Assembly (NCBI GenBank): GCA_024639645.1
Contig: JAHEIB010000003.1
Coordinates: forward strand, 1 to 43,351
Reading direction: 5' to 3'
Length of the DNA: 43,351 bases
DNA from: Deltaproteobacteria bacterium
GTDB lineage: Bacteria > Desulfobacterota > Desulfobacteria > Desulfobacterales > B30-G6
Numbering within the stretch: position 1 is the stretch's first letter; every line of letters starts with the position of its first letter. Made by a program: the position numbers and the translations under genes. A model generated the notes under the pieces. That model was given only the letters and a program-made list of their open reading frames with translations, was not told the origin of the DNA and did no database searches. Below, piece by piece: positions 4,446 to 42,680 of this stretch.

Positions 4446-8015
<3,570 letters not shown>

Positions 8016-8040
8016 ACGGGAACTGCTTTACGAAAAATAC

Positions 8041-8065
8041 AAAATCCCCCTTTATGGGGGATTTT
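8041..8065. terminator. Bidirectional intrinsic terminator between por and the thioesterase
   Basis: AAAATCCCCC-tttat-GGGGGATTTT, perfect 10-bp stem between convergent genes. Confidence 0.8.
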
Positions 8066-9521: not shown

Positions 9522-9564
9522 GCAGTAAGCGATAAGCCCAAAGCAGCTTAAAGCTTACCGCTTA
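9516..9564. repeat. Inverted array of 7-nt tandem repeats (nnTAAGC then nnGCTTA)
   Basis: ctataag cagtaag cgataag cccaaag cagctta aagctta ccgctta; contains the stop codons of both convergent genes. Confidence 0.8.
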
Positions 9565-13241: not shown

Positions 13242-13245
13242 TTTC

Positions 13246-15619: not shown

Positions 15620-15653
15620 GTGGTCCTCCATTTATTTCTTTGCTCTTATATGC

Positions 15654-16718: not shown

Positions 16719-16741
16719 AATCAATTGCCTTATATAGGGTC

Positions 16742-16836
16742 ATTTGTGTTTTGTGTTTTGTAATGTTGTCACGTGCCGGCGTTCACATTGAAATCCTGCT
16801 CCAGACACCAACCACTAAATACCCAACACCAATCAC
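16742..16836. repeat. Degenerate 7-nt repeats (TTTGTGT and ACACCAA-like) in inverted arrangement between flxC and flxB
   Basis: atttgtgttttgtgttttgtaatgttgt ... acaccaaccactaaatacccaacaccaatcact. Confidence 0.55.
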
Positions 16837-21400: not shown

Positions 21401-21452
21401 CAGCGATACCGCCACCAACGACCATGACCGATCCAATTAAATCTTTAGGCAT
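18408..21452 (-). CDS. hdrA: Heterodisulfide reductase subunit A-like flavoprotein (two FAD modules), probable selenoprotein (Sec60)
   Basis: ATG 21452 after AGGAGA: MPKDLIGSVMVVGGGIAG...LDKTFPTNDCAM-TGA(21273-21275)-IISPKLVEVGRH...CIACGICAEKCP, in frame with the 886-aa track ORF; 1014 aa total. QCVGSR and YCS..CC motifs occur twice; C-terminal ferredoxin. Confidence 0.92.
21240..21257 (-). promoter_or_regulatory. Bacterial SECIS-like hairpin of hdrA
   Basis: CTGGTCG-AGGT-CGGCCGG (7 bp including two G-U) starting 15 nt 3' of the UGA. Confidence 0.7.
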
Positions 21453-23538: not shown

Positions 23539-24672
23539 TTATTTTTTAAAAGGGATTTTGATGGTAAACTGAGAGCCCTGTCCCTCAACGGAATCCACAT
23601 GGATGGATCCACCGTGCTGAGCGATGATTTTGTTGGAAAGAAAGAGCCCCAGCCCGGTTCCCTCTCGGCCTTTTGAAGAGTAAAAAAGTGAAAACAGCTT
23701 GTCCCGGGTCTCAATATCCATTCCGATACCATTGTCACCAATGATAAAGAAAAGATGCTTTTCGTCATTCTTGACTGAAAACACTATCTTGTGCTGTTTG
23801 TTCCGATCGTCTTTGATACAGGCATCGATGGCATTTTCGAGGATATTGATGAGGGCTGAATGGACAAAGCCTGTGTCGATATGAATTTTCTCGGCCGAGA
23901 AATCGAAATCTTTTTCCAGCGCTATATTGAATGTTTTACTTTTGGGTTTAACGACCCGGATGACATCATTGGCAAAGGTGAGAATATCGATTTTTTCACA
24001 TCTGAGATTCCTCTCTTTTGCGTAAAACAGGATGTCGCTCACCATTCGTCGAATCCGCTCCACCATCATTTTGAGGATGTCACCGCCTTCCTCGATCTTC
24101 AAAATGTCCTTGGTCTTCAATCCTGAAGCGAGAAGATAGAGACCGCCATCAAGACCGGTCAGCAGCCCCTTGATCCCGTGTGAAATAGATCCCACCATGA
24201 GACCCAGGTTTGAGAGGTTGTCCTGGAGTTCGGTTTTTTCGCGGATGAGTCGTTCAAGATTTTCGGTGTATTCCTGGAGCTGCTTCCGGGTGACAATCTT
24301 TTCTTCCACCCGTTTCAGGGAAATTTCAAGGGCGTCCATGTTGATGGGTTTAGTAATAAAATCAGTTGCTTGATGCTTAAGGCTTTTAATGGCCAGATCC
24401 ATGTCGCCGTGGCCGGTGATCATAATGACTTCCGCTTCGGGATTTTCGCGTTTGATGTGTTGCAAAAGAGCGATGCCATCCATGAGGGGCATCTTGATGT
24501 CAGTCAGGATAATGGGCGGTCTTTCCTCAAGAAAGGTTTCCAATGCTGTTTTGCCATTTGCCGCCGTCAACAACTGATATCCCATGTCCGACAAGGTCAT
24601 GCCGAGGACATCACGGATGTCTTCTTCGTCATCCACCAGGAGAATTTTTTTCTTGTCTTGGGACGTGTTCAT
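23539..24672 (-). CDS. Cytoplasmic hybrid protein: N-terminal receiver plus histidine kinase
   Basis: LLVDDE...LTDIKMP...ITG...TKP; H-box SISHGIKG, ENAIDA, DNGIG, GTGLGL. Confidence 0.9.
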   Translation of the reverse strand: MNTSQDKKKILLVDDEEDIRDVLGMTLSDMGYQLLTAANGKTALETFLEERPPIILTDIKMPLMDGIALLQHIKRENPEAEVIMITGHGDMDLAIKSLKHQATDFITKPINMDALEISLKRVEEKIVTRKQLQEYTENLERLIREKTELQDNLSNLGLMVGSISHGIKGLLTGLDGGLYLLASGLKTKDILKIEEGGDILKMMVERIRRMVSDILFYAKERNLRCEKIDILTFANDVIRVVKPKSKTFNIALEKDFDFSAEKIHIDTGFVHSALINILENAIDACIKDDRNKQHKIVFSVKNDEKHLFFIIGDNGIGMDIETRDKLFSLFYSSKGREGTGLGLFLSNKIIAQHGGSIHVDSVEGQGSQFTIKIPFKK

Positions 24673-24791: not shown

Positions 24792-27059
24792 TTATGGTAA
24801 CGGAAACGACACAATAAAGCAGACACCCTGGTCCTTGTTAGGCAACGCCATGATGGTTCCCCCACAGTCCTTGACAATGCCGTAACTGATGGAGAGACCC
24901 AAACCGGTACCCGCACCCACTTCCTTGGTGGTGAAAAAAGGTTCGAATATTTTTTCTGCAACATGGTTTGGAATGCCGATACCTGTGTCGCAGACTTCGG
25001 CGACAACGCGGTCCCCATCGAGATAGGTTTTGAGTATAATCCGTTCTTCATGATCAACCCGGTTTGCAAAAGATATTTTCTCCTCGATAGCGTCCCTGGC
25101 ATTGAGCAGGAGGTTGATGAATACCTGTTCAAGACGACTTGGATCGGCATGGATTTTGGGTAACTCCGGTTGCATATCCTTGATGACCGCTATCCCCCTG
25201 ACTTTCAGTTGCTGGCTGAAAATCTCAAATGCGCTCACGAGGACATCGTTGATGGAAATTTTTTCCAGTGCCATGTCTGTTTTTCTGGCAAACTGCCGCA
25301 TGTGGTTGATAATCCGGGCAGCCCGGTCCACATTGCTGTCCACTTTCATCAGCATGGTTTCGAGGGTTTCTTTTTCAATATCTTCACCACGGCTGATCTT
25401 CTTGATGAAAAAACTGCTGGCCGTCTTGATGACCGACAGGGGTTGATTCAGTTCGTGGGCAACACCCGTGGCCATTTCACCCAGCGTGGCCATTTTGCTG
25501 GCCTGGATCAGCTGCTGTTCCGCCTCCAGGCGCTTGGTGATGTCACTTGTGGTGACCAGGAGCACCTCTTGCCCGGAATATTCGGAAAGAGAATTACGGA
25601 TATCCACGAAAAGCTCTTTGCGGTCTTTGGCCAGATGCTTGGCCTGGTTTATGACGGCGGATGCTGTCAGCATCGTGGCGTAATGCTCCCTTTCTTCTTC
25701 CCGGAAAAGATCCAGGAATGATCTGCCAACGATATTTTCCGCGGTGAACCCGTACACGCTCTCAACACTCATATTACAGTCCAGAATATGGAGGGTCTTG
25801 ATGTCGAGTACAAACACGGGGTTGGGTATATTGTTGAATATGTCGCGGTATTTCTTTTCGGATCGCTCCAGGTCAACTTCTAGCTGCTTGTGTTTGGAGA
25901 TATCGTGGGAGATCTCCATGGCGGCGACAATCTCGCCTTTATCGTTGACAATGGGCGAAGTCCGCACAATCCAGTGTTTGACGGTACCGTCTTTGTCAAA
26001 ACCGGTCTCTTCTGTGGAGTATGACTTGCCATCCGCGAAGGTCCATTCAACCGGGCAGCGCTTACACTTTTCCGAACGGCCCTTGTAGGCGTGGTAGCAG
26101 AAATCTCCGGGTTTGGGGTCGAACCGGGTAGAGAATTCCTTGTTGTAACGCAGCAGTTTATAATTTCGATTCTGGACGGTGATGATACAGGGAACCTGCT
26201 CAAACAGCTGCATATATTCGTCCCGCTGCATATTGAGAGCCTTTTCTTTTTGGGCGATCTCTGAACCCATTTTATCGATGGCATCTCCCAGCTGACCCAT
26301 TTCATCCTTCTGCGACAGTTGGGACTTGCTTTCATAGTCACCCTTTGCAATATCCTGGGTGCGGGTGATGAGTTTTTTGACGGGATGGTTGACAAACCTC
26401 AGCACGAAGAAAAAGATGATGGTGGATGTGAGCAGAAAAACGGAGATGGACATGCTGATAATACCACGCTGAAGGTGATACAGGGACGCATCTGTTTTTT
26501 TTAGAGAGACGACCAGGTCCAGAGCCCCGAGAATCTTCTTGTCCCGGGGGTGGATGTGGCAATCATCCGTGGAGCAGCCTGGTTCGTTTCGGATAGGGCT
26601 GATGATGCCCAGGAGCCGATACCCCTCGGCATGGTTGAATATACGCGTCCTTTCGTGGAGAGCGAGCTCGGAAAGGGGTGGTTCTGACCGGTGGCAGATG
26701 TCGCAGGCTTCGGCCTTGATGTTTGTGGACAGATCGACTTCAGAGGGTCGGTTCGAAAACTTGATTTCCCCTGCCTTATTGTATATTCGAATATTCTCTA
26801 TTTCAGGCAGCCTTCCGATGTTCATGATGATCTGGTTGATATCATCCCTGGAATTGAGCATCATGGCGTAGTGCGTTCCCAGCCGGATAGTGGTAGTGAG
26901 TCTGTCGGTGGTTCCCACAATATTCTGCATCTCCTTTTCCTTCTGATAGCGCACATTGACATAGGCCCATATTGAAACAGACACCAGAAAGACAAGACCG
27001 ATGGTCAATACGATCTTGGAGACGAGCTTTGTACGTAATTTTTTGAAAAAATTAAACAT
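24792..27059 (-). CDS. Membrane sensor histidine kinase with periplasmic heme-c motifs, HAMP and two PAS domains
   Basis: Two TM helices flank CDICH and CSTDDCH; HAMP (P...DEMGQL), PAS-PAS, H-box GVAHELNQP, NARDA, GTGLGL. Confidence 0.9.
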   Translation of the reverse strand: MFNFFKKLRTKLVSKIVLTIGLVFLVSVSIWAYVNVRYQKEKEMQNIVGTTDRLTTTIRLGTHYAMMLNSRDDINQIIMNIGRLPEIENIRIYNKAGEIKFSNRPSEVDLSTNIKAEACDICHRSEPPLSELALHERTRIFNHAEGYRLLGIISPIRNEPGCSTDDCHIHPRDKKILGALDLVVSLKKTDASLYHLQRGIISMSISVFLLTSTIIFFFVLRFVNHPVKKLITRTQDIAKGDYESKSQLSQKDEMGQLGDAIDKMGSEIAQKEKALNMQRDEYMQLFEQVPCIITVQNRNYKLLRYNKEFSTRFDPKPGDFCYHAYKGRSEKCKRCPVEWTFADGKSYSTEETGFDKDGTVKHWIVRTSPIVNDKGEIVAAMEISHDISKHKQLEVDLERSEKKYRDIFNNIPNPVFVLDIKTLHILDCNMSVESVYGFTAENIVGRSFLDLFREEEREHYATMLTASAVINQAKHLAKDRKELFVDIRNSLSEYSGQEVLLVTTSDITKRLEAEQQLIQASKMATLGEMATGVAHELNQPLSVIKTASSFFIKKISRGEDIEKETLETMLMKVDSNVDRAARIINHMRQFARKTDMALEKISINDVLVSAFEIFSQQLKVRGIAVIKDMQPELPKIHADPSRLEQVFINLLLNARDAIEEKISFANRVDHEERIILKTYLDGDRVVAEVCDTGIGIPNHVAEKIFEPFFTTKEVGAGTGLGLSISYGIVKDCGGTIMALPNKDQGVCFIVSFPLP

Positions 27060-27066
27060 AAATAGC

Positions 27067-30000
27067 TCACGACTTGGGTTCGCCGGGACTCACAATGGAT
27101 AGTGATGGCCAGTTGCTTTCCATGGCTGCGTCGATCATGTCCAGAACTTGATGATCGGAAAAGCCTTGGATCACGGATGCACTGTTGGGACAGGCCGTGG
27201 CACAGTTGCCGCAGCCCTGACACATGGCAGGGTTGACCACAATTTTCTCCAGGTTCGAATCCAGATGTCTTGCATGGTAGGGACATGTGTCGATACATTT
27301 TTCGCAAAGACTGCAGAGGCTGTGTCGCACCGAGGCGATAATTTTCCCGGCAGACAACGTTTCATGAGTGAGAATTCGTAATGCTCTTTGAGCGGCAGCC
27401 CCGGCAGTGGCGATGGTGTCCGGTATTGATCTGGGGGATAAGGCAATTCCACATCCAAAGACCCCTTCTTTGATCGCGTCTACAGGGCGCCACTTGGATT
27501 CCGCTTCCAGAAAAAACCCATCTTGATCCTTTTCAACGGCAAAAGCCTCCGCCAGTGTTGCCGGCAATTGCGGAACCATACCGGTGGCAAGAACCAGGAG
27601 ATCGGCTTCTATCTCCAGGGGTCTGTTCAGAATGGGATCGGTGACAGTAACAGCAAGGGGTGTATTCGTTTTTGTGGGAGCACTTACCCGGGGTTTGTTA
27701 TTCAACGCGTACTGGATGAAGATGACCCCCTCTTTGCGGGCAGTTGTGAAGTAACGCTCGGTGAATCCAACAGTCATCATATCACGGTAAAGAATATAAA
27801 CAGCAATCTTCGGGTTTGCCTTTTTAAGCGTTAAGGCGTGTTTCAACGATGTGGGGCAACAGACCCGACTGCAGTAATTTCTCGGTTCTTGTCTGGAGTC
27901 CACGCACTGGATCATCACCACGGAATCGAGTTTCTGTGGGTCAACATCACCTTTTGCGAGACCCGATTCCAGTTCTTTTTGGGTCATGATGGCCTGACTG
28001 GTACCGTGACCATACGCAGAGGTTGTGGCTTCGTTGCCGCCGGTTGCCAGTATGGCGACACCGTGCTGAATCGTCTCAATGCTTCCGTCACCGTTTTCGA
28101 TGCTTGTATAAAAATTTCCCACATCACCAAATGCGGCCGTAATTTTTGATTGCAGGTGAATATGGACAAGGGGGTGATTTTCTGACGCTTGAACGGTTTC
28201 ATTGAGATACGGCTCCAGAGATAGACCCTCGATGGTCTGATGCAGCCAGAGCAGGTTTCCACCAAGCTTGTCGCTTTGTTCTACCAGGTCCACGGGATAG
28301 CCGTGATCCGCGATTGCCAGGGCGGCATGCATCCCGGCAATACCACCGCCGACCACCAGGGCCCTCCTGGTGACGGGCTGCATGGATGTGGGTAGCGGAT
28401 CCATATTTTTCAGCCTGGAAATGCCCATTTTTAAAGCTGATAGCCGGTAGCTGACAGCCGATAGCTGGTTTGTTGGATTTTGGGTTTGAGTGAAGATCGG
28501 GGACATGATATCCACCACATCCATCATTTCGGCATCCAGATGAATTTGTTGGCCCAACACTCTCAGTTTTCGGATGAAAAGGTACGGATGGCACGCGCCT
28601 ATGAGGAGCCGGTTGGGCCGGCGGTCTTTAATGATCCCGGTGAGTTCCTCCCATCCAGTTGCTGTACAGCATTGTCCGAGAAAAACGACCCTGTCCACAC
28701 ACGGATCCTGTTGGAGCTGGCGTGTCAATGCTTCCTCGTCCAGATGCTCCGAATATTTGTTCCCGCAATTGCAGACAGCTACCAGCATCTTCGGCTCTTC
28801 TTTTGAGATATCCTGAAATGCCGGCTCAGAAAAAGATTCATCTGAAAGAGACCCCCCCGCAGCATGAATGATTCTGGAGGCTTCCAGAGACGCCGCAGAT
28901 GCATACATTACGGATTCACTGATATCTTTGAGGCCTGAAAACGATCCGCCGGCCAGTACACCTGATCGGTCGGTGGTCACAGGAGAAAGCGCTTCCGTCT
29001 GGATGAAGCCCCAGGGGTTAAGGGGCGCCTCGATCAGTTTTGATAATACCTCGATACCACGTGCCGGGCGCTGGCCTATGGCCAGCACCACCAGATCAAA
29101 GGTTTCATTATGGATACTCCCGTCGATCTGGGCGTATCGGATAAGCGCTTTCCCGGTCGATGTATCTGCTGTGATGGAATGGATGCGGGCCCTTTCAAAT
29201 CGTACACCGTGCTCCTGCTCTGCGCTGTCACGATAGCGCTGGAATGTTTTTCCAAACGTGCGCATGTCCATGTAAAAAATGGTGGTTTCAACGGGCGAGG
29301 GGTTCTTTTTTATCACCAGCAGGGCTTCTTTTATGGCAACCATGCAACAGACGGAAGAGCAGTAATCTGCGTCGAGTTGGACATTTCGAGAGCCTACACA
29401 CTGTATCCAGGCGATCTTCTCGATATTTTTACCATCCTGGGGTTTCACCAGCCGACCCTGTGTCGGCCCGGTGCCGCTCAGCATCCGTTCCAGTTCGCGG
29501 CTGGTAATCACGCCGGGGTTTGTCCTATAGCCATAAATGTTTTTCGATTCGGTTGGATCAAAATATGCCGTGCCACCTGATAATACAATGGCACCCACCT
29601 CAAGAGATTGAACGTCACCGGCTTCGATCTCTTCGTAAACCTGAACGATTTTTGCGATCATCTGTTCCGGGTCAAAGGGTTTCATCAGATAATCCTGCGC
29701 GCCTGTTTTCATTGCTTCCACGGCGGTTTCCACCGTGGCAAAAGCGGTCATCATCAATACACACAGGTCAGGGAAACTTTCCTTGGCTTTCTCGAGGAGC
29801 TCGACGCCATCCATTCCGGGCATCTTGATATCCGTCAACATGAGGTTGAACGACGCTTTTGACAGCTTTTTGAGCGCCATGGGCCCGGATTCGGCAACAT
29901 CCACAGAAAAACCTTCTTCGTCCAGCCACGCCTTCAGGGAGTCGCGCACGATCAGTTCGTCATCCACCACCAGGACATAAAATTCTTTACGTTTTTCAAG

Positions 30001-30549
30001 CGAAAGCTCAATGGCCTGGGTAGGACAAATCTTTTGACATTCTCCACAGTGGTTGCAGGCTGCAAGATCGATGACATAAGGGTTGGGGATGGTGTGGGGA
30101 ACGGGCAGGTAAATTGCCTTGCGCGTCGTCAAACCCTCATTGAATGCGTCGGGAATTTCCACCGGGCAAACCGTTTCACAGGCGCCGCAGCCAACGCATC
30201 GTTCCGGATCGACCCATGTGGGTTTCTTTCGCACGGACACTGAAAATTTGCCGGGCTCGCCTTCTATGGCCACGACTTCCGTGTTGAGCCGGATATCGAT
30301 ATTTTCGTGAAAAAGGCCCTTTCGAAGGCAAAACTGAGATGACTGGTCACGCTTGACAAGGGGCAGCATCTTGCACATGCCGCAATGGTTTGATGGAAAT
30401 TGATCGTCCAGCTGACTGAGAATGCCGCCCATATATGTTTCGCGATCGATGAGGGTAACACCGTACCCGTTTTCGGCCAGATCCAGGGCCGAGCGGATAC
30501 CGCTGATGCCTGCGCCCACTACCAGGGCTTTACCCATTTTTTTACCCAT
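27067..30549 (-). CDS. HdrA-like flavoprotein with an internal response-regulator receiver domain
   Basis: 1160 aa; two GxG FAD modules with QCV.SR and YCS..CC, inserted and C-terminal ferredoxins; residues ~190-305 are a REC (VLVVDDE...LTDIKMP...MTA...MKPF). Confidence 0.92.
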   Translation of the reverse strand: MGKKMGKALVVGAGISGIRSALDLAENGYGVTLIDRETYMGGILSQLDDQFPSNHCGMCKMLPLVKRDQSSQFCLRKGLFHENIDIRLNTEVVAIEGEPGKFSVSVRKKPTWVDPERCVGCGACETVCPVEIPDAFNEGLTTRKAIYLPVPHTIPNPYVIDLAACNHCGECQKICPTQAIELSLEKRKEFYVLVVDDELIVRDSLKAWLDEEGFSVDVAESGPMALKKLSKASFNLMLTDIKMPGMDGVELLEKAKESFPDLCVLMMTAFATVETAVEAMKTGAQDYLMKPFDPEQMIAKIVQVYEEIEAGDVQSLEVGAIVLSGGTAYFDPTESKNIYGYRTNPGVITSRELERMLSGTGPTQGRLVKPQDGKNIEKIAWIQCVGSRNVQLDADYCSSVCCMVAIKEALLVIKKNPSPVETTIFYMDMRTFGKTFQRYRDSAEQEHGVRFERARIHSITADTSTGKALIRYAQIDGSIHNETFDLVVLAIGQRPARGIEVLSKLIEAPLNPWGFIQTEALSPVTTDRSGVLAGGSFSGLKDISESVMYASAASLEASRIIHAAGGSLSDESFSEPAFQDISKEEPKMLVAVCNCGNKYSEHLDEEALTRQLQQDPCVDRVVFLGQCCTATGWEELTGIIKDRRPNRLLIGACHPYLFIRKLRVLGQQIHLDAEMMDVVDIMSPIFTQTQNPTNQLSAVSYRLSALKMGISRLKNMDPLPTSMQPVTRRALVVGGGIAGMHAALAIADHGYPVDLVEQSDKLGGNLLWLHQTIEGLSLEPYLNETVQASENHPLVHIHLQSKITAAFGDVGNFYTSIENGDGSIETIQHGVAILATGGNEATTSAYGHGTSQAIMTQKELESGLAKGDVDPQKLDSVVMIQCVDSRQEPRNYCSRVCCPTSLKHALTLKKANPKIAVYILYRDMMTVGFTERYFTTARKEGVIFIQYALNNKPRVSAPTKTNTPLAVTVTDPILNRPLEIEADLLVLATGMVPQLPATLAEAFAVEKDQDGFFLEAESKWRPVDAIKEGVFGCGIALSPRSIPDTIATAGAAAQRALRILTHETLSAGKIIASVRHSLCSLCEKCIDTCPYHARHLDSNLEKIVVNPAMCQGCGNCATACPNSASVIQGFSDHQVLDMIDAAMESNWPSLSIVSPGEPKS
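28432..28467. repeat. 7-nt repeat array inside the HdrA-REC coding sequence
   Basis: ttaaagc tgatagc cggtagc tgacagc cgatagc, translated as QLSAVSYRLSAL. Confidence 0.65.
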
Positions 30550-30581: not shown

Positions 30582-30648
30582 TTCAGCTCATAGCTGATAG
30601 CGCATAGCGCGTAGCACTGACATCTATCAGCTATGCGGTGTCAGCTAA
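30582..30648. repeat. Inverted 7-nt repeat array
   Basis: ttcagc tcatagc tgatagc gcatagc gcgtagc ... ctatcag ctatgcg gtgtcag cta; contains the upstream gene's stop. Confidence 0.75.
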
Positions 30649-31790
30649 TTGTGTATACCTACGATTTCAGCAAATTCGTCTTCCTTGAATTCAGAAAGAG
30701 GCGGCATTTCTTCTGGGTTTTTGCCGGCTTCGTAGTTGAATGCCCGCTGGGTGTTGTATGCGATCATGCGAAACAGCGGCATGATTGCGATGTCATTGGG
30801 ACAAGCGTTGGTGCATTGTCCACATCCGACACAGGCGGTGCTCATGTGCGCCAAACGGGTGATGTGGTACAGCAATGTGTCCGTGGGCATTTTTACGGCC
30901 CCTTTTTTTCTGGCCCATCGCAGATACTGGTTGGGTTCGTGATCGAACACATCGGTCACGAAAACGCACTCTCTGCAGTAGCACACGGGGCATGCAACCC
31001 GGCAGTTATAACAGTTTACGCATCCGGCCAGATAGGCGCTCAGTTTCTCCACGCTGTCCGTCTTGCCGGCTGTTTCAGCAAACATATTGTCTCGAAATGT
31101 CGTTCTTTCCGAAATCAGACGTTCTATTTCTTTCCTGCGCGAGGCAGGTTCTTCTGCAGCCGAGAGATCGAGGCTTTCAAGAAGATGGCCACCCTTGTCC
31201 GTAAGTGCCTGAACAAGGATCTGTTGACGGGTATCCACACCGAAAAAGCCGATGCTGATGTCTGCACCTTCGGCTACGGGAAGCTCGCAGGATTGGCATG
31301 CCTGTGCCGGTTCGACACTGCCCATGTCGGGGGTTTTTCCGGAAAGCACCTGAGCGGCAAATGTGTTCGCGGCCCCATCGCCGTTTTCGCCAGCCCAGTT
31401 CAGATAATCCCTGTTCCCCATCGCCCCCAGGCAGTCAATGCCGATGCGTATCAATTTGTCGGTGCGTGCCTGTTTGAGTTTGACCAGTTCCACAAAAGCT
31501 CTGATTTCGCATGGGCGCATCACGGCTGCTATGGTACCACCCGAGGGTTTACGTGTGAGGCGTGACACGATTTTGGCATTGTTCATTGGAAACGCCGGGG
31601 ACAGGGGGTCCACGCTGTTCAATGAGACCGGGTCTGTCAAGAGGGTCGGCATGACCATCTTTTTTGTGGGAAGCCTACAGGGAGCCAGGATGGCATTGAC
31701 ATCCTCCTTTGCCAGGATATTTTTAAAAAGCCCCCTCAGCGCGTCCAGCAGATCATGATCTTTAACATCTATTTTGGCCGTTATTACCAT
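30645..31790 (-). CDS. FdhB/FrhB-like (FlxC-related) iron-sulfur protein with 4Fe-4S dicluster
   Basis: MRPCE, GIDCLG, ACQSC, CVNCYNCRVACPVCYCRECVF, CVGCGQCTNACP. Confidence 0.82.
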   Translation of the reverse strand: MVITAKIDVKDHDLLDALRGLFKNILAKEDVNAILAPCRLPTKKMVMPTLLTDPVSLNSVDPLSPAFPMNNAKIVSRLTRKPSGGTIAAVMRPCEIRAFVELVKLKQARTDKLIRIGIDCLGAMGNRDYLNWAGENGDGAANTFAAQVLSGKTPDMGSVEPAQACQSCELPVAEGADISIGFFGVDTRQQILVQALTDKGGHLLESLDLSAAEEPASRRKEIERLISERTTFRDNMFAETAGKTDSVEKLSAYLAGCVNCYNCRVACPVCYCRECVFVTDVFDHEPNQYLRWARKKGAVKMPTDTLLYHITRLAHMSTACVGCGQCTNACPNDIAIMPLFRMIAYNTQRAFNYEAGKNPEEMPPLSEFKEDEFAEIVGIHN

Positions 31791-31919: not shown

Positions 31920-32345
31920 TCACCCCACCAATTGCATCCTGGCCTGGCTGGGTCCCAGGGTCTTGATCTGAGCCACGAGTTCCTGAAGGGTTTCAGCCAG
32001 CAAAACACCATCGCTGGCCGCTATCCATGTGAGCCTCAGCCGTTCAGGCTCAAATCCGAAACTGGGCAGAATCTCTTTCAACAGTTTGATACGTCGGCGG
32101 GCTTTGAAATTCCCGTTGATGTAGTGGCAGTCGCCGGGATTGCAGCCACTCACCAGAACACCATCGGCACCTTCCAGGAGCGCCTTGATGACATACTTGG
32201 GGTCCACCATGCCACTGCACATCACCCGGATGATTTTTATATTCGGTGGATAAGAGAGGCGCGATGTGCCGGCCAGGTCTGCCGCCGTATAGGTACACCA
32301 GTTGCAGAAGAAAGCCAGGATGGTGGGTTCGAAATTATCGTCCAT
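31920..32345 (-). CDS. mvhD: MvhD-like [2Fe-2S] subunit (Cys form)
   Basis: FFCNWCTYTAADLAG, VMCSG, SGCNPGDCHYINGN. Confidence 0.9.
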   Translation of the reverse strand: MDDNFEPTILAFFCNWCTYTAADLAGTSRLSYPPNIKIIRVMCSGMVDPKYVIKALLEGADGVLVSGCNPGDCHYINGNFKARRRIKLLKEILPSFGFEPERLRLTWIAASDGVLLAETLQELVAQIKTLGPSQARMQLVG

Positions 32346-32561: not shown

Positions 32562-35500
32562 CTATCCCGCCAATAGCCCTTCAATTTCAGAAAAAATCTG
32601 CTTGTCTGTAAAATGACGTACCTTGGCTGCACCACTGGGACAGTATCCGGCACAACTGCCACACCCTTTGCAGATGGCTTCGTTGACTTCACTGATGCCT
32701 TTGCGCTCGTTGAATTCGATGGCCGTGTAGGGGCAGAGGCTAATGCATACCTGGCATCCGATGCAGATATCAGGGTCGATGGTGGAGATCATCGGTGACA
32801 CGGCCACCTGGCCGGAAGCACTGAGTGAAAGTGCTTCGGCAGCGGCTCCTTTGGCCTGGGCGACGGTATCCGGGATGTCTTTGGGTCCCTGGCAGGCGCC
32901 GGCCAGGAAGACACCGCTCGTAGCGGTGGAAACGGGTTCGAGCTTGGGGTGTTCTTCCTGGTAGAAGCCATCGCTTCCGGTGGAAATACCGAAAATTCTG
33001 GCCACATCGTTTACATCGGGACGTGGCTCCATAGCGGTACACAGGATCACCATTTCCACGGGAATTTTCAATAGACTGTCGGAGAGGGTGTCTTCCGCTG
33101 TTACCCACAGCATGTTGTCGACTTCCTTCACACTTGAGGCTTTGCCGCGGATCATACGAACACCTTCGCTTTGGACACGCGTATAGAATTCTTCGTAGCC
33201 TTTGCCGAAGCAACGCATGTCGATGTAGAAATTGTAAATCTGGGTTTCGTGACCACACTTGTCCTTGAGAAGATGGGCGTACTTAAGGGCATACATACAG
33301 CATGTGCGGGAACAGTACTCATGATAGTTGATGTCGCGACTGCCGATACAGTGCAGGATAGCCACACTTTTGGGTGGCTTGGTGAACTTAAGGTGATCAT
33401 CAGGGTCGCGTTTCAAAAGCCGGCCGCTCGTAGGCCCGGTGGCATTAGACAGGCGTTCGAATTCCAGGTTGGTGAAGACGTTGGCATACCGGCCGTATCC
33501 ATACTGTGTCATGGGGCTTGGATCAAGGGGGTCAAAGCCCGTAGCAACAACGATGGAGCCCACTTCGACATCCTGTATTGTTTCCGTCATGTTATGATTG
33601 ATGGCTTTTGCCTCGCAGGCATCCACGCACAGTTTACAATCACAGCACCCTCCGCAATCCAAACACCGGGCGGCTTCCGCTGTTGCCGCTTCCTCTGAAA
33701 AACCGTGATCGACCTCATGGAAACTTTTCACCCGCTGCTGTGGGTCCAGCAGGGTGGACACGACCCTGGGGCTTGTCTCGATATCTTCGGAGACGGATTT
33801 CCAGTTGTTTCCCGGGGGTGGTCCAACCTCCGGTTGTTCTAGGATTCCATGGCGATCTTCATCACAAAGATAGCGATGGATGGCTGCCACAGCCTTGTGG
33901 CCGGCGGCAACCGCTTCGATGACCGTTGCCGGTCCGGTGACGGCATCACCGGCGCCGAAAACATGCGGGAGACTGGTCTGCATTGTTCCAGGGTTGACCT
34001 TGATGGTATTTCGCGTGGTCAATTCCAGACCGGGTTCTTTTGTGGCCCAGGACACATCAATTTTCTGTCCGATAGCGGGAATGACGGCGTCGCATGGTAC
34101 GATATATTCGGAACCCTTTACCGGAACAGGGCGCCGACGTCCGCTGGCATCCGTAGGGCCGAGTTCTGTCCGGATACAGGTGCACCCGCTTACATGCCCA
34201 TCCTTGCTCTGTATGTCCACAGGTGCTGTGAGAAAGGAGATTTCAATACCTTCCTCCCGGGCCCCGGCAATTTCTTCTTCGTAGGCAGGCATTTCACGTT
34301 CAGAACGTCTGTAGACCACCGTGACATGTTCAGCCCCGAGACGTTTGGCTACCCGTGCCGCGTCTATGGCGACATTTCCACCACCGATAACGACAACCCG
34401 TTTGCCTGGGGCTTCTCGATTCCCCAGGTTGATCTCCCTCAAAAAGCCTACAGCATCAATGACCTCTGCGACCCGCTCCTCTCCCTGGATCTGCATCTGA
34501 AGGGAGCCATGGGCCCCAATCCCCAGAAAAACGGCAGAAAATCCTTTTGACTCAAGATCCGACAGGGATATGTCCTGGCCGAAACGTACATTTGTTTCAA
34601 CGTCGATTCCGTGATCAAGGATATATTGGATCTCCTTTTCCAGCAACTTGGCTGGCAATCGATAGTCGGGGATACCCACACGGAGCATTCCTCCCAGCTG
34701 GCCGAGGGCCTCGAACAAAGTGATGCGGTAGCCTTTGAGTCTCAGGTAATAGGCCACGGTGAGACCGGCGGGTCCGGAACCGATGACGGCGATTTTTTCC
34801 GAACGGTTTTCGATCTTGGGCAGAGGTAGGTCGGAAACGTTCACCTGGTCGGCGGCAAAACGCTTCAACTCACGGATGGCAACCGGGGTGTCCACCTCGA
34901 CCCGGCGACAGGATTTTTCACAGGGTGCCGGACAGACACGGCCAAGGGTCCCGGGGAGGGGTATCTTCTCCATGATGAGTTTTACCGCCTCTTGGTATCG
35001 GCCTGTTTTGATAAGAGCGATATAGCCTTGGACGTTGGTTTCTGCAGGACATGTCTGAACACATGGTGCCCGATCAAGTTTGTCTATGGTGTAAGTGATG
35101 GGAACGGCCTGAGGAAATGGTCGGTAAATAGCTTTTCTCAGCTTGGTGCCCACATCCCATTCATTGGGGAAGGTAACAGGGCATACCTTTTCGCACTCAC
35201 CGCACCCAGTGCAGTTGGTTTCGATATAACGTGCTTTGCGAAGGATTTTGACTTTGAAGTTGCCGATAAATCCGCTGACATCCACTATTTCACTGTAAGA
35301 CAGGAGTTCAATGTTGCGCTCCTGGCCCACAGAGACCATTTTCGGTGTTCCAATACATGCCGCACAGTCCAGGGTGGGAAAGGTTTTGTCATACTGGAGC
35401 ATGTGCCCCCCGATGGTGGGCGTTCTTTCTACCAGGTATACCCTGAAACCGGCACTGGCGATATCCAGGGATGCCTGCATGCCGGCGATACCAGCGCCTA

Positions 35501-35942
35501 CCACGAGGGTGTTTGTACAGACGGGAAATTCCGCCGGTGTTAATTCCTGCTGGTGAACAACACGCATAATGCCTGCTCCGGCTATAATCTTGGCTTTTTG
35601 TGTTGCTTTTTCCTCCTCCAGGGTCACCCAGGAAACATGTTCCCGGACACTGACCATGTGGAAGGACCTGTAGGGGTTGAGACCGGCGCGCTGGCAGGCA
35701 GCCCGAAAGGTTTTTTCGTGCATCCTTGGAGAGCAGGATGCCACAACCACACGCGTGAGATGGTGGGTCCGAATATCATTTTCAATCAATTCCTGACCCG
35801 GATCCGAGCACATGAACAGATAATCCCGTGATACGGTTACATTCGGGAGGGTCGCTACATAAGCAGCCACCTCCTCCACCCGGACACGGTAAGCGATATT
35901 AATGCCGCAGTGGCAGATGTAGAATCCGACGCGTTCAGGCAT
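32562..35942 (-). CDS. hdrL: HdrL-like protein: HdrA with a GltD/NfnB-like NAD(P)H-binding insertion
   Basis: YICHCG, DKTFPTLDCAAC; insert APC...CP...LGRVCPAPCE..C, GSGPAG, GIPDYRLP, GGGNVAIDAAR, YRRS; HCIGSR, CSRTCC; start 35942 after CAGGAGG. Confidence 0.87.
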   Translation of the reverse strand: MPERVGFYICHCGINIAYRVRVEEVAAYVATLPNVTVSRDYLFMCSDPGQELIENDIRTHHLTRVVVASCSPRMHEKTFRAACQRAGLNPYRSFHMVSVREHVSWVTLEEEKATQKAKIIAGAGIMRVVHQQELTPAEFPVCTNTLVVGAGIAGMQASLDIASAGFRVYLVERTPTIGGHMLQYDKTFPTLDCAACIGTPKMVSVGQERNIELLSYSEIVDVSGFIGNFKVKILRKARYIETNCTGCGECEKVCPVTFPNEWDVGTKLRKAIYRPFPQAVPITYTIDKLDRAPCVQTCPAETNVQGYIALIKTGRYQEAVKLIMEKIPLPGTLGRVCPAPCEKSCRRVEVDTPVAIRELKRFAADQVNVSDLPLPKIENRSEKIAVIGSGPAGLTVAYYLRLKGYRITLFEALGQLGGMLRVGIPDYRLPAKLLEKEIQYILDHGIDVETNVRFGQDISLSDLESKGFSAVFLGIGAHGSLQMQIQGEERVAEVIDAVGFLREINLGNREAPGKRVVVIGGGNVAIDAARVAKRLGAEHVTVVYRRSEREMPAYEEEIAGAREEGIEISFLTAPVDIQSKDGHVSGCTCIRTELGPTDASGRRRPVPVKGSEYIVPCDAVIPAIGQKIDVSWATKEPGLELTTRNTIKVNPGTMQTSLPHVFGAGDAVTGPATVIEAVAAGHKAVAAIHRYLCDEDRHGILEQPEVGPPPGNNWKSVSEDIETSPRVVSTLLDPQQRVKSFHEVDHGFSEEAATAEAARCLDCGGCCDCKLCVDACEAKAINHNMTETIQDVEVGSIVVATGFDPLDPSPMTQYGYGRYANVFTNLEFERLSNATGPTSGRLLKRDPDDHLKFTKPPKSVAILHCIGSRDINYHEYCSRTCCMYALKYAHLLKDKCGHETQIYNFYIDMRCFGKGYEEFYTRVQSEGVRMIRGKASSVKEVDNMLWVTAEDTLSDSLLKIPVEMVILCTAMEPRPDVNDVARIFGISTGSDGFYQEEHPKLEPVSTATSGVFLAGACQGPKDIPDTVAQAKGAAAEALSLSASGQVAVSPMISTIDPDICIGCQVCISLCPYTAIEFNERKGISEVNEAICKGCGSCAGYCPSGAAKVRHFTDKQIFSEIEGLLAG

Positions 35943-38235
35943 GCAGGGCCTCCTGGTCAAGTTCTAAATTGATATGGACAGGCATGGGGTGTTCATATCT
36001 TATCTCAATGGATTGAATCAGTAGCTCGGCAATATCTTGAACAGCAATGCGTTCTTGGATACCGAGGTTCATGATGGCTTTTTGGAGCATCCGTGTGCAA
36101 TAGGGACAGGCCGTGGCGATCACACCGGCACCAGTGTTCAGGGCCTGTTCAATTCGCTGCACTGCCAGTCGGTCATTGGAGGAAGGATCCTGGAATGCGC
36201 CCCCGCCCCCGCCCCCGCAGCAGAGGCTGTTGTTACGATTGTCAGGCATTTCAACAAGGCTGAGACCCGGGATGCCCTTCAAAATACGGCGCGGCGCGTC
36301 GTAAATGCCGTTGTGACGCCCCAGGTAACAGGGATCGTGAAAGGTGACACGGCTTGTTACTTCGAATCTTGGGACCAGATCTCCTTTTGAGACGAGTCGA
36401 TCAAGGAGCACGGTGTAGTGTTCGAATTCCATGTGCGCCCGGGTATTTGCATACGCTTTTCGAAAGGTTTCAAGACAATGGGGTGAGGTCGTGAGGACCC
36501 TTTCAACACCCCGACGCTGAAAAAGCGACATATTCTCATGTGAAAGGTCTGAAAAACGGTCTACAGCACCTAATCGGAAGGCCGGGTCTCCGCAACAACG
36601 CTCTTCTTTTCCAAGGCTGCCAAATCCTACTTTTGCCTGCAGCAGCAGTTTGAGGAGCGCCCGGCCGGCCTGATTGCATGTCTGGGACGGTGTTTCGTCA
36701 TATGCCGTGGTGCAGCACGTGAACAGGCAATAGGTATGTTCCGGTTTGAAATCAGGTATATGGATATCTTCTGACCAGCACAATCGTTGCCCGGGGTCTC
36801 CCCCCCAGGGGTTACCTTTGTCCGTTAGTTGCTGCAAAGGGATTTCGAACGGCGCCGGGGTGTGCCCCTGTATGTTCTGGATTTCCCGGACGGATCTGAT
36901 TACATCGATGAGATGAATTCCCCGGGGGCAGGCGTCCCCGCAGGCATCACAGGTGACGCAGTTCCATGCAGCGTCATCGACACTCTTTACGGTACCGGTA
37001 CCCAGGCCGATTTGGCGAAGAATCTGTCTGGGGCTGTAAGCTGATACCTGATTCCAGGGACAGACAGCGGTACAGGTGCCGCACTGCAAGCAGACCATAA
37101 ACAGCTCTCCAATACGCGTCTTGACGTTTTGCATGTCCACGGAAGAGGGTTTTGCAGCTTTTTCCCGAACGCTTGTCAAAAACAGGGCCAGGGGGCGGTA
37201 GAAGAGGTGGGACCACTTTCCAAAAGGGACCTCGATGACCAGCATGGGCACGGCGATGGCCAGATGGATGACATACATGACATACGTACCCATGGGCCAG
37301 CCGGCCAGGCGCACCATGTGCATGATGATACCGGTCAGGGTGGTCAGAAAAAGGAGGATCAGGAAAAGCCAGTCGGAAAGCTCTGAAAAGCGGTGGAGGG
37401 CCTCTTGTTTTCTGCGTCGGCTCTGGAACATTTCAATGGTAACGATCAGGATGACACCGGTGGCATAGTATCCAAAGAGGCTCGAGAAATGCCAGCTGCT
37501 ATCATCCACCTGAAACCAGCGGATAAATACGATAATCAGGGTCATCATGGTCATGTAGCCGGATACCAGAAGAAAATGTTTCAGCCAGCGGCTTTTGTCC
37601 TCACTGCATTCCCGCCAGCGCTTCTGGGTTGCAAAATGAAGCACAAAGGATTTGGCTTCGGTCAGATAAAGCCGGAAAGGTACGGACGTGTCGCTCATGA
37701 TGAATCGGAACATCCTGAATGCATTTGACAGGAGAAAGAGTGACAGCACAGCCGCCATGCCAAGATCGCCGATTTCGATCCACAGAACCGGCACAAAGGT
37801 ATTGACGGCCACATGATCGGTAATGATGGGGCCGTGAAAAAACCAGAATAGAGCGATGATACCCAGGGCCACCACACCCAGCGCACCCATCTCCCATGTT
37901 TCGTAGAGATAGAATTTTTTGGCGAGACCGGTCCAGTCGTACTGGGTGGTCAACCACCGGCGGGTTGCCATCATGGTTTCTGCGGGTTCGGCACCCCGGG
38001 GACAATCTAAATTGCATTCACCACAATAATAACAGAGCCACGGGACGGGTGACTGGAGCAGCTTGTCTCTTAAACCCAGCTGAAGATAGCGGTATATCTT
38101 TCGAGGGAATGTATCTGTGCCGGTGGAAAGGGGACATGACGCGCTGCAGGTGCCGCATTGCATGCAGATTTCCATGTCTCTGGCCCCGAACTTTGCTACC
38201 TCCTGGTAAAGTTCCGGGTCGATTTCCTTATACAT
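35935..38235 (-). CDS. Membrane heterodisulfide-reductase-like protein (QmoC-like ferredoxin plus cytochrome b TM region fused to HdrD-like ferredoxin and 2 CCG domains; HdrF-type)
   Basis: CMQCGTCSASCP and CYYCGECNLDCP; about 6 TM helices with His (KHF, IHL, KWSHLFYRP); second dicluster; RCCG...SPHC and HDPCYLGR...LCCGGGGG...TACPYC. Confidence 0.88.
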   Translation of the reverse strand: MYKEIDPELYQEVAKFGARDMEICMQCGTCSASCPLSTGTDTFPRKIYRYLQLGLRDKLLQSPVPWLCYYCGECNLDCPRGAEPAETMMATRRWLTTQYDWTGLAKKFYLYETWEMGALGVVALGIIALFWFFHGPIITDHVAVNTFVPVLWIEIGDLGMAAVLSLFLLSNAFRMFRFIMSDTSVPFRLYLTEAKSFVLHFATQKRWRECSEDKSRWLKHFLLVSGYMTMMTLIIVFIRWFQVDDSSWHFSSLFGYYATGVILIVTIEMFQSRRRKQEALHRFSELSDWLFLILLFLTTLTGIIMHMVRLAGWPMGTYVMYVIHLAIAVPMLVIEVPFGKWSHLFYRPLALFLTSVREKAAKPSSVDMQNVKTRIGELFMVCLQCGTCTAVCPWNQVSAYSPRQILRQIGLGTGTVKSVDDAAWNCVTCDACGDACPRGIHLIDVIRSVREIQNIQGHTPAPFEIPLQQLTDKGNPWGGDPGQRLCWSEDIHIPDFKPEHTYCLFTCCTTAYDETPSQTCNQAGRALLKLLLQAKVGFGSLGKEERCCGDPAFRLGAVDRFSDLSHENMSLFQRRGVERVLTTSPHCLETFRKAYANTRAHMEFEHYTVLLDRLVSKGDLVPRFEVTSRVTFHDPCYLGRHNGIYDAPRRILKGIPGLSLVEMPDNRNNSLCCGGGGGGAFQDPSSNDRLAVQRIEQALNTGAGVIATACPYCTRMLQKAIMNLGIQERIAVQDIAELLIQSIEIRYEHPMPVHINLELDQEALHA

Positions 38236-38343: not shown

Positions 38344-38760
38344 CTATCCATGTTCCAGGGTAGACAAATCCTGAACTGTCGTCAGGAGATCCTCGGTTTC
38401 CAGCGGTTTTTCCATGAACGTATCGGTTAATTCATAGGCTTCACAGTGCCTGTAACCGTATACGTTTTGGCATCTCAGAAACGTGTCTTTATCCAGGTTA
38501 GAGAGCATGATGACCGGTATATGCCTGAGGACCTTGTCCTGCTTGAGGTTTTGATACAGATGGATGCCGCTTTTTCCCGGCATCATCATGTTGAGGATGA
38601 TGACGGATGGATGCTCTGTAATAGCTTTTTTGAACCCGTCTGCCTTGTTGTTCGCCGTAATTGCATTGAATCCGCTGGCGTTCAGGAGATTTATAAGGAA
38701 AATTCTCGTATCTGCCTCATCGTCCACCACAAGGATTTTTTTCACGATTTTTGCAGACAC
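38344..38760 (-). CDS. Single-domain response regulator with the phospho-acceptor Asp replaced by Asn
   Basis: GTG start after GGGAGG; KILVVDDE...VIILNMMMPGKSG...MLS...MEKP; AAC codon at 38590-38592. Confidence 0.85.
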   Translation of the reverse strand: MSAKIVKKILVVDDEADTRIFLINLLNASGFNAITANNKADGFKKAITEHPSVIILNMMMPGKSGIHLYQNLKQDKVLRHIPVIMLSNLDKDTFLRCQNVYGYRHCEAYELTDTFMEKPLETEDLLTTVQDLSTLEHG

Positions 38761-38869: not shown

Positions 38870-38885
38870 AGCACAGAGCGTGCCA
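38870..38885 (-). promoter_or_regulatory. sigma54 (-24/-12) promoter
   Basis: TGGCACGCTCTGTGCT: GG-N10-GC with TGGCACG, ~110 nt upstream of the receiver gene and next to a bEBP gene. Confidence 0.75.
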
Positions 38886-38957: not shown

Positions 38958-38998
38958 TACATCACATATGTTGCAATAAACGCAACATATGTGATGTA
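38958..38998. promoter_or_regulatory. Perfect 17-bp inverted repeat, probable upstream activator site
   Basis: TACATCACATATGTTGC-aataaac-GCAACATATGTGATGTA, 73-113 bp upstream of the -24 element and separated from it by an AT-rich tract. Confidence 0.7.
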
Positions 38999-39571: not shown

Positions 39572-39640
39572 TTAAATGATAAGTTTTAAGCATTATGCTG
39601 CGTATCGTTTAATGATCAAAGCTTATCGCCGAAGCAGCTA
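39572..39640. repeat. Degenerate 7-nt repeat array at the bEBP 3' end
   Basis: tgataag ttttaag cattatg ... aagctta tcgccga agcagcta. Confidence 0.5.
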
Positions 39641-41400: not shown

Positions 41401-41459
41401 TATTAGCTCATAGCTGATAGCCCGCTACGAGCTAGCAGCTATCAGTCACCGGCAGTCGG
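41401..41459. repeat. Inverted 7-nt repeat array overlapping the kinase 3' end
   Basis: attagc tcatagc tgatagc ... ctacgag ctagcag ctatcag tcaccgg cagtcgg. Confidence 0.7.
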
Positions 41460-42583: not shown

Positions 42584-42680
42584 AATTTCTTTCCTCCGGT
42601 TTCCCGGTCCTGTCAGATCGGTGCACATGCGCTTTAAACTTGAAACATTTGGTTAAAGGTATTGTATGCCAGGGGTATTG

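Follow-up and report, generated by a model that had tools for sequence, protein, structure and literature searches.

A response-regulator receiver domain inserted in a tandem HdrA flavoprotein of Desulfobacterales and Syntrophobacterales

The HdrA-REC protein and its inserted receiver

The window analysed here is a 43,351-nucleotide stretch of a deltaproteobacterial genome (GenBank assembly GCA_024639645.1, contig JAHEIB010000003.1). On its minus strand, at 27067..30549, it encodes a tandem HdrA flavoprotein that contains an inserted receiver (REC) domain of the response-regulator type; we refer to this protein as HdrA-REC. The reading frame comprises 1160 residues and has no internal stop. 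Pfam matches Response_reg (PF00072) to residues 192-301, covering positions 1-110 of the 111 in the profile (E=4.7e-31, 107.7 bits against a cutoff of 30.2). Two FAD/Pyr_redox starts are located at residues ~8 and ~730 (Pyr_redox_2, FAD_oxidored and NAD_binding_8), and Fer4 is found at 112-187, in module 1 only, and at 1077-1123, in module 2 only. The GxGxxG Rossmann start and the thioredoxin-reductase-like domain identify the protein as HdrA-type. The HdrA cysteine motifs, CxxC near the FAD and QCxGSR...CSxxCC, are also present, and C56, C59, C384, C397, C401 and C402 are invariant or near-invariant among 68 sequences. Module 2 keeps C882, C893, C897 and C898 and has no CxxC. Each ferredoxin domain carries two four-cysteine motifs, all 16 cysteines being invariant or near-invariant. 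The Pfam domains and these cysteines agree with the initial annotation of this DNA, which had described the FAD, Fe-S and cysteine motifs as intact. The best NCBIfam models, HdrA2 (660.3 bits, cutoff 1100) and HdrA (541.2 bits, cutoff 1400), score below their equivalog cutoffs. HdrA-REC is a homolog, rather than an equivalog, of archaeal CoB-CoM heterodisulfide reductase HdrA/HdrA2.

From the N-terminus, module 1 comprises the first part of a thioredoxin-reductase-like FAD domain (30226..30549, residues 1-108) with GxGxxG and Cys56/Cys59, the inserted ferredoxin domain (29986..30225, residues 109-188) with two CxxCxxCxxxC motifs (C118-C128 and C165-C175), the receiver with its short linkers (29614..29985, residues 189-312) and the second part of the FAD domain (28855..29613, residues 313-565) with C384/C397/C401/C402. 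Module 2 opens with a segment resembling the HdrA N-terminal domain (28390..28806, residues 582-720), followed by its own FAD domain (27355..28371, residues 727-1065) and then a ferredoxin domain at the C-terminus, with Fer4 (27115..27354, residues 1066-1145). All of these lie on the minus strand. The middle domain (582-720) was considered as a separate MvhD and this was rejected; it aligns to the N-terminal domain of a solved HdrA (5ODC, residues 2-181). The protein thus consists of two HdrA modules fused together, each of them incomplete. The inserted ferredoxin and Cys59 belong to module 1, which lacks the N-terminal domain and the C-terminal ferredoxin; module 2 has the latter pair and lacks the inserted ferredoxin and an equivalent of Cys59. 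Fused HdrAs with complementary modules have been described by Chadwick et al. as acting as 'their own heterodimeric partners' (PMC9012536). Cys59 aligns with the second Cys of CxxC in the solved HdrA and with a selenocysteine in a paralog. This paralog, a second tandem HdrA in the window (Sec-HdrA; 18408-21452, minus strand, 1015 residues), is readable only with the TGA at 21273-21275 taken as selenocysteine, residue 60, the residue that aligns with Cys59. Selenocysteine U197 is known in a methanogen HdrA (PMC13518236), to which the Cys59 position is probably equivalent.

The alignment with the solved HdrA (5ODC chain A, E=3.1e-113) located the insertion. Residues 7-185 of HdrA-REC fall on 145-313 and residues 313-505 on 316-507; further along, 582-765 align with 2-181 and 965-1140 with 469-647. 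Because the first two segments flank it, the receiver is placed between solved-HdrA residues ~313 and ~316, at the C-terminal seam of the inserted ferredoxin domain. The linkers on either side are short. The alignment with Sec-HdrA, at 38% identity, has a single clean gap; it is ~120 columns long and separates '...SLEKRK' from 'LEVG'. The initial annotation had proposed an HdrA of the Sec-HdrA layout with ~120 extra residues, which enter in frame at the inserted ferredoxin's exit; the single gap accounts for the former, and the Pfam domains together with the 5ODC alignment confirm the latter. The same seam is used in the neighbouring HdrL (32562..35960, minus strand), an HdrA-like protein with a GltD-like NAD(P)H module at residues 294-794, located by domain search and alignment. 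Homology to HdrA-REC resumes at HdrL residue 795, which aligns with HdrA-REC residue 313; the GltD-like module therefore shares the downstream boundary of the receiver. We note that two neighbouring paralogs thus hold different modules at one insertion point. In ANME-1 an NfnB-like domain interrupts the inserted ferredoxin domain (PMC9012536). The seam is a recurrent insertion point, and insertions at it were already known.

The receiver appears catalytically intact. It contains VVDDE at 194, LTDIKMP at 238, MMTAF at 266 and LMKPF at 288; these strings, quoted in the initial annotation in support of a complete receiver, were all found where it had put them. The acidic pair Asp196-Asp197 is encoded at 29959..29964, the predicted phospho-acceptor Asp240 at 29830..29832, the switch Thr268 at 29746..29748 and the conserved Lys290 at 29680..29682, all on the minus strand and identified from alignments of relatives. 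Residues 100-420 were the focus of a word-indexed protein search, in which 4006 of the 8000 scored candidates reached E<=1e-3. Of these, the best 120 relatives listed share 63-91% identity and are mostly 1130-1170 residues long. When these were aligned with the query (MAFFT), D196, D197, D240, T268 and K290 were invariant in 121/121 rows. The same five residues are kept in 80/80 genome loci (the best 80 in named genomes, 53-88% identity). The loss of catalytic residues that marks a pseudo-receiver is not seen in the window protein. Across 116 full-length rows, the receiver has a mean identity to the query of 0.71 and an entropy of 0.88 bits, with 28 of 124 columns invariant. This is on a par with the inserted ferredoxin (0.72 and 0.96 bits), and the two large FAD-domain segments are less conserved (0.62 and 1.15 bits; 0.63 and 1.23 bits). 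The stretch from alpha4 to beta5 (residues ~266-292) is nearly invariant. Judged by this conservation, the receiver is under selection like the catalytic parts. Profile comparison places it nearest to the FixJ, ZraR, AtoC and NtrC types.

The fusion is neither an artefact nor unique to this genome; it is widespread in Desulfobacterales and Syntrophobacterales. The window's own genome holds a single copy (self match 433 bits; the next match, at 96 bits, is an ordinary receiver). A 196-residue junction fragment occurs once per genome in 26 of 41 related genomes, namely 13 of 14 from the same family and 12 of 26 from other families of the order. In these the frames are open, stop-free and mostly 1130-1183 residues long. 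Across the phylum the junction is present in at least 8 of 301 sampled genomes, a lower bound, as scoring was limited to 10 candidates per genome, at E<=1e-40. In named genomes at least 588 junctions were confirmed among the 600 pattern matches listed (Desulfobacterales and Syntrophobacterales). The best 80 loci include Desulfonema magnum, D. limicola, Desulfosarcina cetonica, Desulfobacula, Desulfobacter, Desulfospira, Desulfamplus, Ca. Desulfatibia, an Olavius symbiont, Syntrophobacter and Desulfatibacillaceae. Complete chromosomes, for example that of Desulfonema magnum, carry the junction. In Syntrophobacter two of three genomes have it, and junction and cluster are found together at two loci (L069, L092). 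The database names of the relatives, all automatic, are 'heterodisulfide reductase subunit A', 'FAD-dependent oxidoreductase' and 'response regulator'. Contigs from sequencing runs bear on the continuity of the sequence. A 2015-nucleotide contig from sequencing run X1, possibly the source sample, covers 28503-30517 and both junctions with two differing letters. Contigs of a relative from another study's RNA library (X19) bridge each junction, which does not prove transcription. The small-share runs X4-X20 have no bearing on habitat. Misassembly, a lack of homologs and loss of the Asp had been named at the outset as findings that would speak against the fusion; contigs bridge the junctions, other genomes share them, homologs are abundant and the Asp is kept in all 121 rows and all 80 loci.

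Gene neighbourhood and signalling genes

The genes from a sigma-54 activator through a REC-HATPase hybrid kinase all lie on the minus strand, and HdrA-REC sits among them. Directly upstream is an FdhB/FrhB-like Fe-S protein (30645..31790), the probable electron-input subunit, whose best solved relatives are entries of the Fdh-Hdr complex (8RVU_E FdhB, E=4.6e-32). MvhD/FlpD (31920..32345, E=3.7e-53) and HdrL follow. Domain searches identified the next gene (35935..38235) as a fusion of a QmoC-like part with HdrC and HdrB (CCG) parts, here called HdrD-like, with five predicted transmembrane helices. The QmoC-like match of its N-terminal half is below cutoff (217 bits, cutoff 300), and the HdrC-like and HdrB (CCG) parts come after it. 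The complex may be membrane-anchored and quinone-linked in the lineage of the window.

Synteny was scored at the 80 genome loci (coverage at least 60%, identity at least 40%), the denominators being evaluable loci. The FdhB-like gene is directly upstream of HdrA-REC at 69 of 71 loci, MvhD is nearby at 62 of 63 and HdrL at 47 of 54; the HdrL misses that were inspected are split, partial alignments. The fused HdrD-like gene is less common upstream (12/46). Seven loci have a gap of ~1.5 kb before the kinase, and reading their open reading frames showed it to be filled by separate HdrC-like and HdrB-like (CCG) genes. A stand-alone receiver is found in the cluster at 29 of 44 loci; downstream, a counterpart of the window's sensor kinase occurs at 38 of 59 and the REC-HATPase protein at 36 of 57. 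HdrL, MvhD, the FdhB-like protein, HdrA and an HdrBC/HdrD-type protein are all present in the window, as in clusters of the HdrABC/HdrL type. The best explanation of the gene content is that HdrA-REC is the central flavoprotein of a conserved Hdr-like complex made of HdrL, MvhD, the FdhB-like protein, the tandem HdrA and a disulfide-reductase subunit of HdrBC/HdrD type. An orphan HdrA-REC was also observed in the Desulfonema magnum chromosome (locus L022, 8004506-8025084), where the FdhB-like gene, MvhD, HdrL and kinases are all absent within 10 kb.

Three neighbouring kinases had been predicted, and domain searches bear out each of them. The sensor histidine kinase at 24792..27059 starts 8 nucleotides past the end of HdrA-REC. 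It is composed of a transmembrane helix (residues 8-26), a periplasmic domain, a second transmembrane helix (205-223), HAMP, PAS, HisKA and HATPase. A haem-c motif, CXXCH, can be read in the periplasmic domain as CDICH (residues 119-123, 26691..26705, minus strand). CXXCH is found in 37 of 39 orthologous N-termini and CX4CH in 27 of 39, and the domain is probably a haem-c redox sensor. Its sole Pfam hint is a sub-threshold match to PF21563 (21.7 bits, cutoff 27), a family that we take to cover haem-c sensors. The second kinase (23539..24672) is a REC-HATPase hybrid, and the third (41432..42628, minus strand) is its REC-HisKA-HATPase paralog. A stand-alone receiver of ~138 residues lies at 38344..38760; its start is probably a GTG near 38760, the listed TTG at 38886 being over-extended. 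Beyond it is a PAS-AAA+-HTH sigma-54 activator (39638..41371), in which a receiver was not detected. Upstream of the stand-alone receiver there is a putative sigma-54-type -24/-12 element, TGGCACGCTCTGTGC (GG-N10-GC; 38871..38885, minus strand), a consensus match only, and over the whole window this pattern is not above chance (53 found, 47.3 expected). A perfect palindrome of 41 nucleotides (38958..38998, no strand assigned) lies ~70 nucleotides further upstream and is a possible activator site. Domain searches of the annotated part of the window found no DNA-binding response regulator. With that and with an activator lacking a receiver, the phospho-acceptors left are HdrA-REC, the small stand-alone receiver and the hybrid kinases.

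The remaining genes of the window are set apart from this cluster. Fer4 proteins and an FAD/NAD-binding protein (14777-17780) follow Sec-HdrA and form with it a separate Hdr/Flx-like cluster. Elsewhere are a pyruvate:ferredoxin oxidoreductase (4464-8015, plus strand), a class I fumarate hydratase (2685-4298, plus strand) and a GAF-PAS-HisKA-HATPase-REC hybrid kinase (10374-13358, minus strand).

Phylogeny, degenerate receivers and kinase co-occurrence

An exhaustive HMMER search of 50%-identity representatives returned 625,602 hits at E<=1e-3 and 1947 at E<=1e-30. Among the best 150 representatives, 103 are of full-length size; nine carry the insert and the rest are tandem HdrAs without a receiver (REC-less). 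Eight of the nine have all five phosphorylation residues. A further representative, P0140, is a fragment that begins inside the receiver. We fetched an additional 102 loci by means of the FdhB-like marker and a REC-less sister protein. This gave 182 loci, 179 of which could be classified: 119 canonical, 11 with a degenerate receiver, 18 'near' REC-less (module-1 identity at least 50%) and 31 distant REC-less.

The 11 degenerate loci have an insert of 125-141 residues at the same seam as the canonical receiver. Together with the representative P0125 they make 12 rows, and the acidic pair is lost in all of them, being replaced by TP, SP, DR, HQ, AG or DP. The position of D240 is Asp in nine rows and Gly in three; Thr is kept in two and Lys in nine. 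P0125 reads D-P-D-G-H at the five receiver positions in a local alignment. In one of the degenerate receivers the Pfam score is 25 bits, below the cutoff. The branch (L099 at 7167-10712, L163, L164, L165, L167, L171, L174, L175, L182, L189, L193 and P0125) has a conserved C-terminal motif of its own, VPWLDK..MR..SD. It fits the definition of pseudo-receivers as recognisably receiver-like domains with key catalytic residues missing (PMC12632262); the window protein, with its five residues intact, does not.

A FastTree phylogeny of 67 proteins was calculated from an alignment stripped of its receiver columns, with the distant group as root; the support values are approximate. All 39 REC-bearing rows fall within one clade of 41 rows (support 96), and the pseudo-receivers form a monophyletic group (support 100). 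Two REC-less proteins, L119 and P0124, are nested inside canonical subclades, P0124 as the sister of P0122 (support 98). The REC-bearing clade excludes the near REC-less clusters, and an earlier tree agrees. The simplest history would have one insertion, one degeneration and at least two losses. Both P0124 (1021 residues) and L119 are full-length yet REC-less, indicating precise secondary loss of the receiver; the downstream flank of L119 is 3.5 kb. G018 was considered as another REC-less ortholog and rejected, as its contig ends 102 residues into the gene.

Downstream kinases were then counted by class. A kinase was scored when its core reached at least 60 bits, or a REC-kinase at least 100 bits, within 7 kb downstream at loci with a flank of at least 4.5 kb. 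They are present at 64 of 73 evaluable canonical loci (50 on the same strand), 0 of 8 pseudo-receiver loci, 9 of 13 near REC-less loci and 0 of 23 distant REC-less loci. Loss of the catalytic residues thus accompanies loss of the downstream kinase, as would be expected if the kinases really phosphorylate the canonical receiver. Some caution on this co-loss is needed, because some kinase is found elsewhere in the flanks at 6 of the 11 pseudo-receiver loci (5 of the 8 evaluable); at L099, for example, a hybrid kinase lies upstream on the opposite strand. The idea that kinases are exclusive to REC-bearing HdrA had to be rejected in view of the nine near REC-less loci.

Stand-alone receivers, PAS kinases and PAS-sigma-54 activators are likewise encoded in the near REC-less clusters (by Pfam for L100). 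The two-component system therefore predates the insertion and does not exist for D240 alone. In L100 (11649-15846), and also in L102-L105, two stand-alone receivers (156 and 158 residues in L100), a PAS kinase and a PAS-sigma-54 activator stand right behind HdrC/HdrB; receiver pairs of REC180-like type are found in all of these clusters. It is possible that such receivers are the counterpart 'in trans' of the fused receiver. At L108 (6683-8008) a sigma-54 activator lies beside a kinase in a REC-less cluster, and its receiver is 52% identical to that of HdrA-REC, the highest identity seen outside HdrA. This hints at an NtrC-type origin of the inserted receiver. For the function, the initial annotation had inferred either gating of electron flow by phosphorylation or a feed from the HdrA redox state into the phosphorelay. 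The comparative data as a whole lean towards genuine control by phosphorylation, without indicating which way the signal runs.

Proposed phosphorylation control, its alternatives and significance

From the observed domain identities, insertion site, conservation, synteny and phylogeny a working model was constructed. We propose, with moderate confidence, that the enzyme is under allosteric control through phosphorylation of Asp240, which probably acts on its low-potential ferredoxin branch. HdrA-REC would then double as a response regulator within the Hdr-like complex. Its canonical receiver would have been inserted once, at the point of return from the inserted ferredoxin domain to the FAD domain, and kinases encoded in the operon would phosphorylate Asp240. 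Candidates for this are the membrane kinase, whose periplasmic sensor domain carries CXXCH (probably haem-c), and the REC-kinase hybrid. Phosphorylation would change the alpha4-beta5-alpha5 face of the receiver and so act as an allosteric switch of the enzyme. The termini of a receiver are both on the side opposite the active site, and an inserted receiver can therefore keep its phosphorylation site exposed. The likeliest target would be the low-potential ferredoxin branch, with the receiver repositioning or occluding the ferredoxin arm. Low-potential electrons leave the bifurcating FAD via the inserted ferredoxin domain, towards ferredoxin or polyferredoxin, and conformational flexibility in HdrABC gates electron transfer (PMC9012536, PMC13518236). 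The outcome would be cytoplasmic electron bifurcation or confurcation matched to a redox signal. Phosphorylation, the kinase responsible, the signal sensed and the effect on electron flow are what we infer here. A more specific version can also be formulated, which we regard as possible and hold only tentatively. The phosphorelay would act directly on the Hdr complex, the membrane kinase reading periplasmic redox state through its c-type haem, phosphorylating Asp240 directly or via the REC-kinase hybrid and switching the low-potential branch within seconds.

Several observations weigh against phosphorylation control of the enzyme. The mobile parts demonstrated in methanogen HdrA are the N-terminal domain and MvhD/VhuD, and the inserted ferredoxin domain is not among them (PMC13518236). 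Near REC-less clusters have downstream kinases (9/13) as well as stand-alone receivers, and the kinases may primarily serve the latter. Nine of the 73 evaluable canonical loci are without a downstream kinase, and the Desulfonema magnum copy is without nearby partner genes. The joint loss of pseudo-receiver residues and kinases took place in a single clade, hence it counts as one event rather than eight. L119, P0124 and the pseudo-receiver branch show that the enzyme can do without phosphorylation, and even without the receiver itself.

The first alternative reverses the direction of signalling and is, in our judgement, unlikely. The HdrA receiver would be a redox-dependent phosphate sink or connector, in which the redox or conformational state of the enzyme sets the rate at which the receiver gains or gives off phosphate, and thereby influences the kinases, the stand-alone receiver and finally sigma-54-dependent operon transcription. 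Branched two-component systems commonly use phosphate sinks, and receivers and kinases abound at the locus (two REC-kinase hybrids, one stand-alone receiver and one histidine kinase). The putative sigma-54-type promoter with its upstream palindrome precedes the operon, beside the PAS-sigma-54 activator, and the phosphorelay would have existed before the insertion since REC-less relatives already have kinases and stand-alone receivers. However, a link from receiver to activator is not evident, the activator having PAS and no detected receiver. A sink would also need neither a precise conserved seam nor very high conservation of alpha4. The pseudo-receiver branch, moreover, retains the domain after loss of the catalytic residues and the kinase, which argues for a role inside the enzyme.

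Equally improbable, as we see it, is control of assembly. Dimerisation of the receiver, or a phospho-dependent surface, would recruit or release the FdhB-like protein/MvhD, HdrL, ferredoxin or DsrC, or alter the oligomeric state. Receivers of the NtrC/FixJ/AtoC types, to which this one is closest, typically act via dimerisation surfaces. HdrA complexes function as dimers, fused HdrAs being their own heterodimers (PMC9012536), and ferredoxin or polyferredoxin docks on the side of the inserted ferredoxin domain (PMC13518236). The short linkers, on the other hand, suggest rigid coupling to the host domains over a free docking module.

A mainly structural role, in which the receiver fold is kept as a spacer or scaffold at a permissive site and phosphorylation is irrelevant in vivo, seems to us very unlikely. 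The seam does tolerate other large inserts, the GltD-like module of HdrL and the NfnB-like domain of ANME-1 (PMC9012536), and an entire branch carries pseudo-receivers. Yet the five phosphorylation residues are invariant (121/121, 80/80), which is hard to explain without selection for phosphochemistry, and kinases co-occur with the canonical form and not with the degenerate form. That a response-regulator gene was wrongly joined into hdrA by assembly or annotation is so improbable as to be negligible: although the source genome is fragmented (302 contigs, 83.6% complete), the in-frame junction recurs with stop-free frames in 26 of 41 related genomes, is found in complete chromosomes such as that of Desulfonema magnum and is spanned by contigs from two studies.

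The complex can be compared with known Hdr systems. HdrA of the methanogen HdrABC-MvhAGD and Fdh-Hdr complexes (5ODC, 8RVU, 7BKB) aligns in its FAD domain, cysteine motifs, both ferredoxin domains and N-terminal domain, and the partner types (MvhD, FdhB-like, HdrBC-like) are shared. HdrA-REC differs in being bacterial, in its two fused modules with complementary domain loss and in the receiver behind the inserted ferredoxin; its complex is unlikely to use CoM-S-S-CoB as substrate. Another parallel is the 'HdrABC/HdrL' cluster of Syntrophobacter fumaroxidans (Sfum_0819-0824; PMC5947623), which comprises HdrL, MvhD, an Fe-S protein like the Fdh/hydrogenase beta subunit, HdrA, HdrB and HdrC. The window differs from it in using the membrane QmoC/HdrD-like fusion in place of separate HdrC and HdrB. 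In a proteomic study the complete S. fumaroxidans complex was detected only under conditions with sulfate, and its authors put forward electron confurcation together with a link to DsrC (PMC5947623). In the portion of that paper available to us, 'response regulator', 'two-component' and 'histidine kinase' have no occurrences and the receiver is unmentioned. Fused or tandem HdrAs and NfnB-like or GltD-like (HdrL) forms (PMC9012536; PMC2702500) resemble HdrA-REC in the fusion of two HdrAs with complementary N-terminal domain and Cys197, and in the use of the inserted-ferredoxin region as insertion point. In HdrA-REC, however, the insert is a signalling receiver and not a redox or nucleotide-binding domain, and the order of the modules is reversed relative to the ANME fusions (PMC9012536).

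There is also a parallel among two-component systems. CheB, PleD/WspR and RpfG are response regulators with enzymatic outputs. Like them, HdrA-REC has a canonical receiver covalently joined to its presumed target enzyme and encoded beside kinases. Unlike them, its receiver is inside the enzyme fold and not N-terminal, and the output would be a multi-cofactor flavoprotein of the electron-bifurcation type, a class of output for which our searches brought up no description.

The initial annotation knew of no characterised HdrA-REC protein, and our full-text literature searches likewise brought up no description of an HdrA-receiver fusion; InterPro architecture tables or response-regulator censuses may mention the architecture. 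In the available part of a domain-architecture survey of 501 HdrA sequences, 'receiver' and 'response regulator' have zero occurrences. A receiver in HdrA thus apparently is undescribed; the receiver, HdrA, the HdrABC/HdrL cluster and insertions at the seam were all known already. The protein is found in many genomes of Desulfobacterales and Syntrophobacterales, which should temper any surprise at it.

In methanogens, sulfate reducers and syntrophs, energy conservation at the thermodynamic limit depends centrally on HdrA-type complexes. Discussion of how these are controlled has so far dealt with gene expression and intrinsic conformational gating (PMC13518236). A receiver in the bifurcating subunit raises the testable question of whether phosphorylation lets cells turn electron bifurcation on or off or shift it between branches. 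The receiver may also be relevant to the detection of the HdrABC/HdrL complex only with sulfate (PMC5947623). A receiver with its catalytic residues is conserved alongside kinases in abundant sediment sulfate reducers, and the pseudo-receiver clade, the REC-less sisters and the relatives with stand-alone receivers provide a natural control set. Should phosphorylation control prove true, an oxidoreductase of such complexity would be added to the known outputs of two-component systems. In the more specific version set out above, response regulators would gain a new class of output, and flavin-based electron bifurcation its first post-translational switch under the control of a signal, one that is conserved in marine and syntrophic sulfate reducers alike and, in a sister clade, frozen as a pseudo-receiver.

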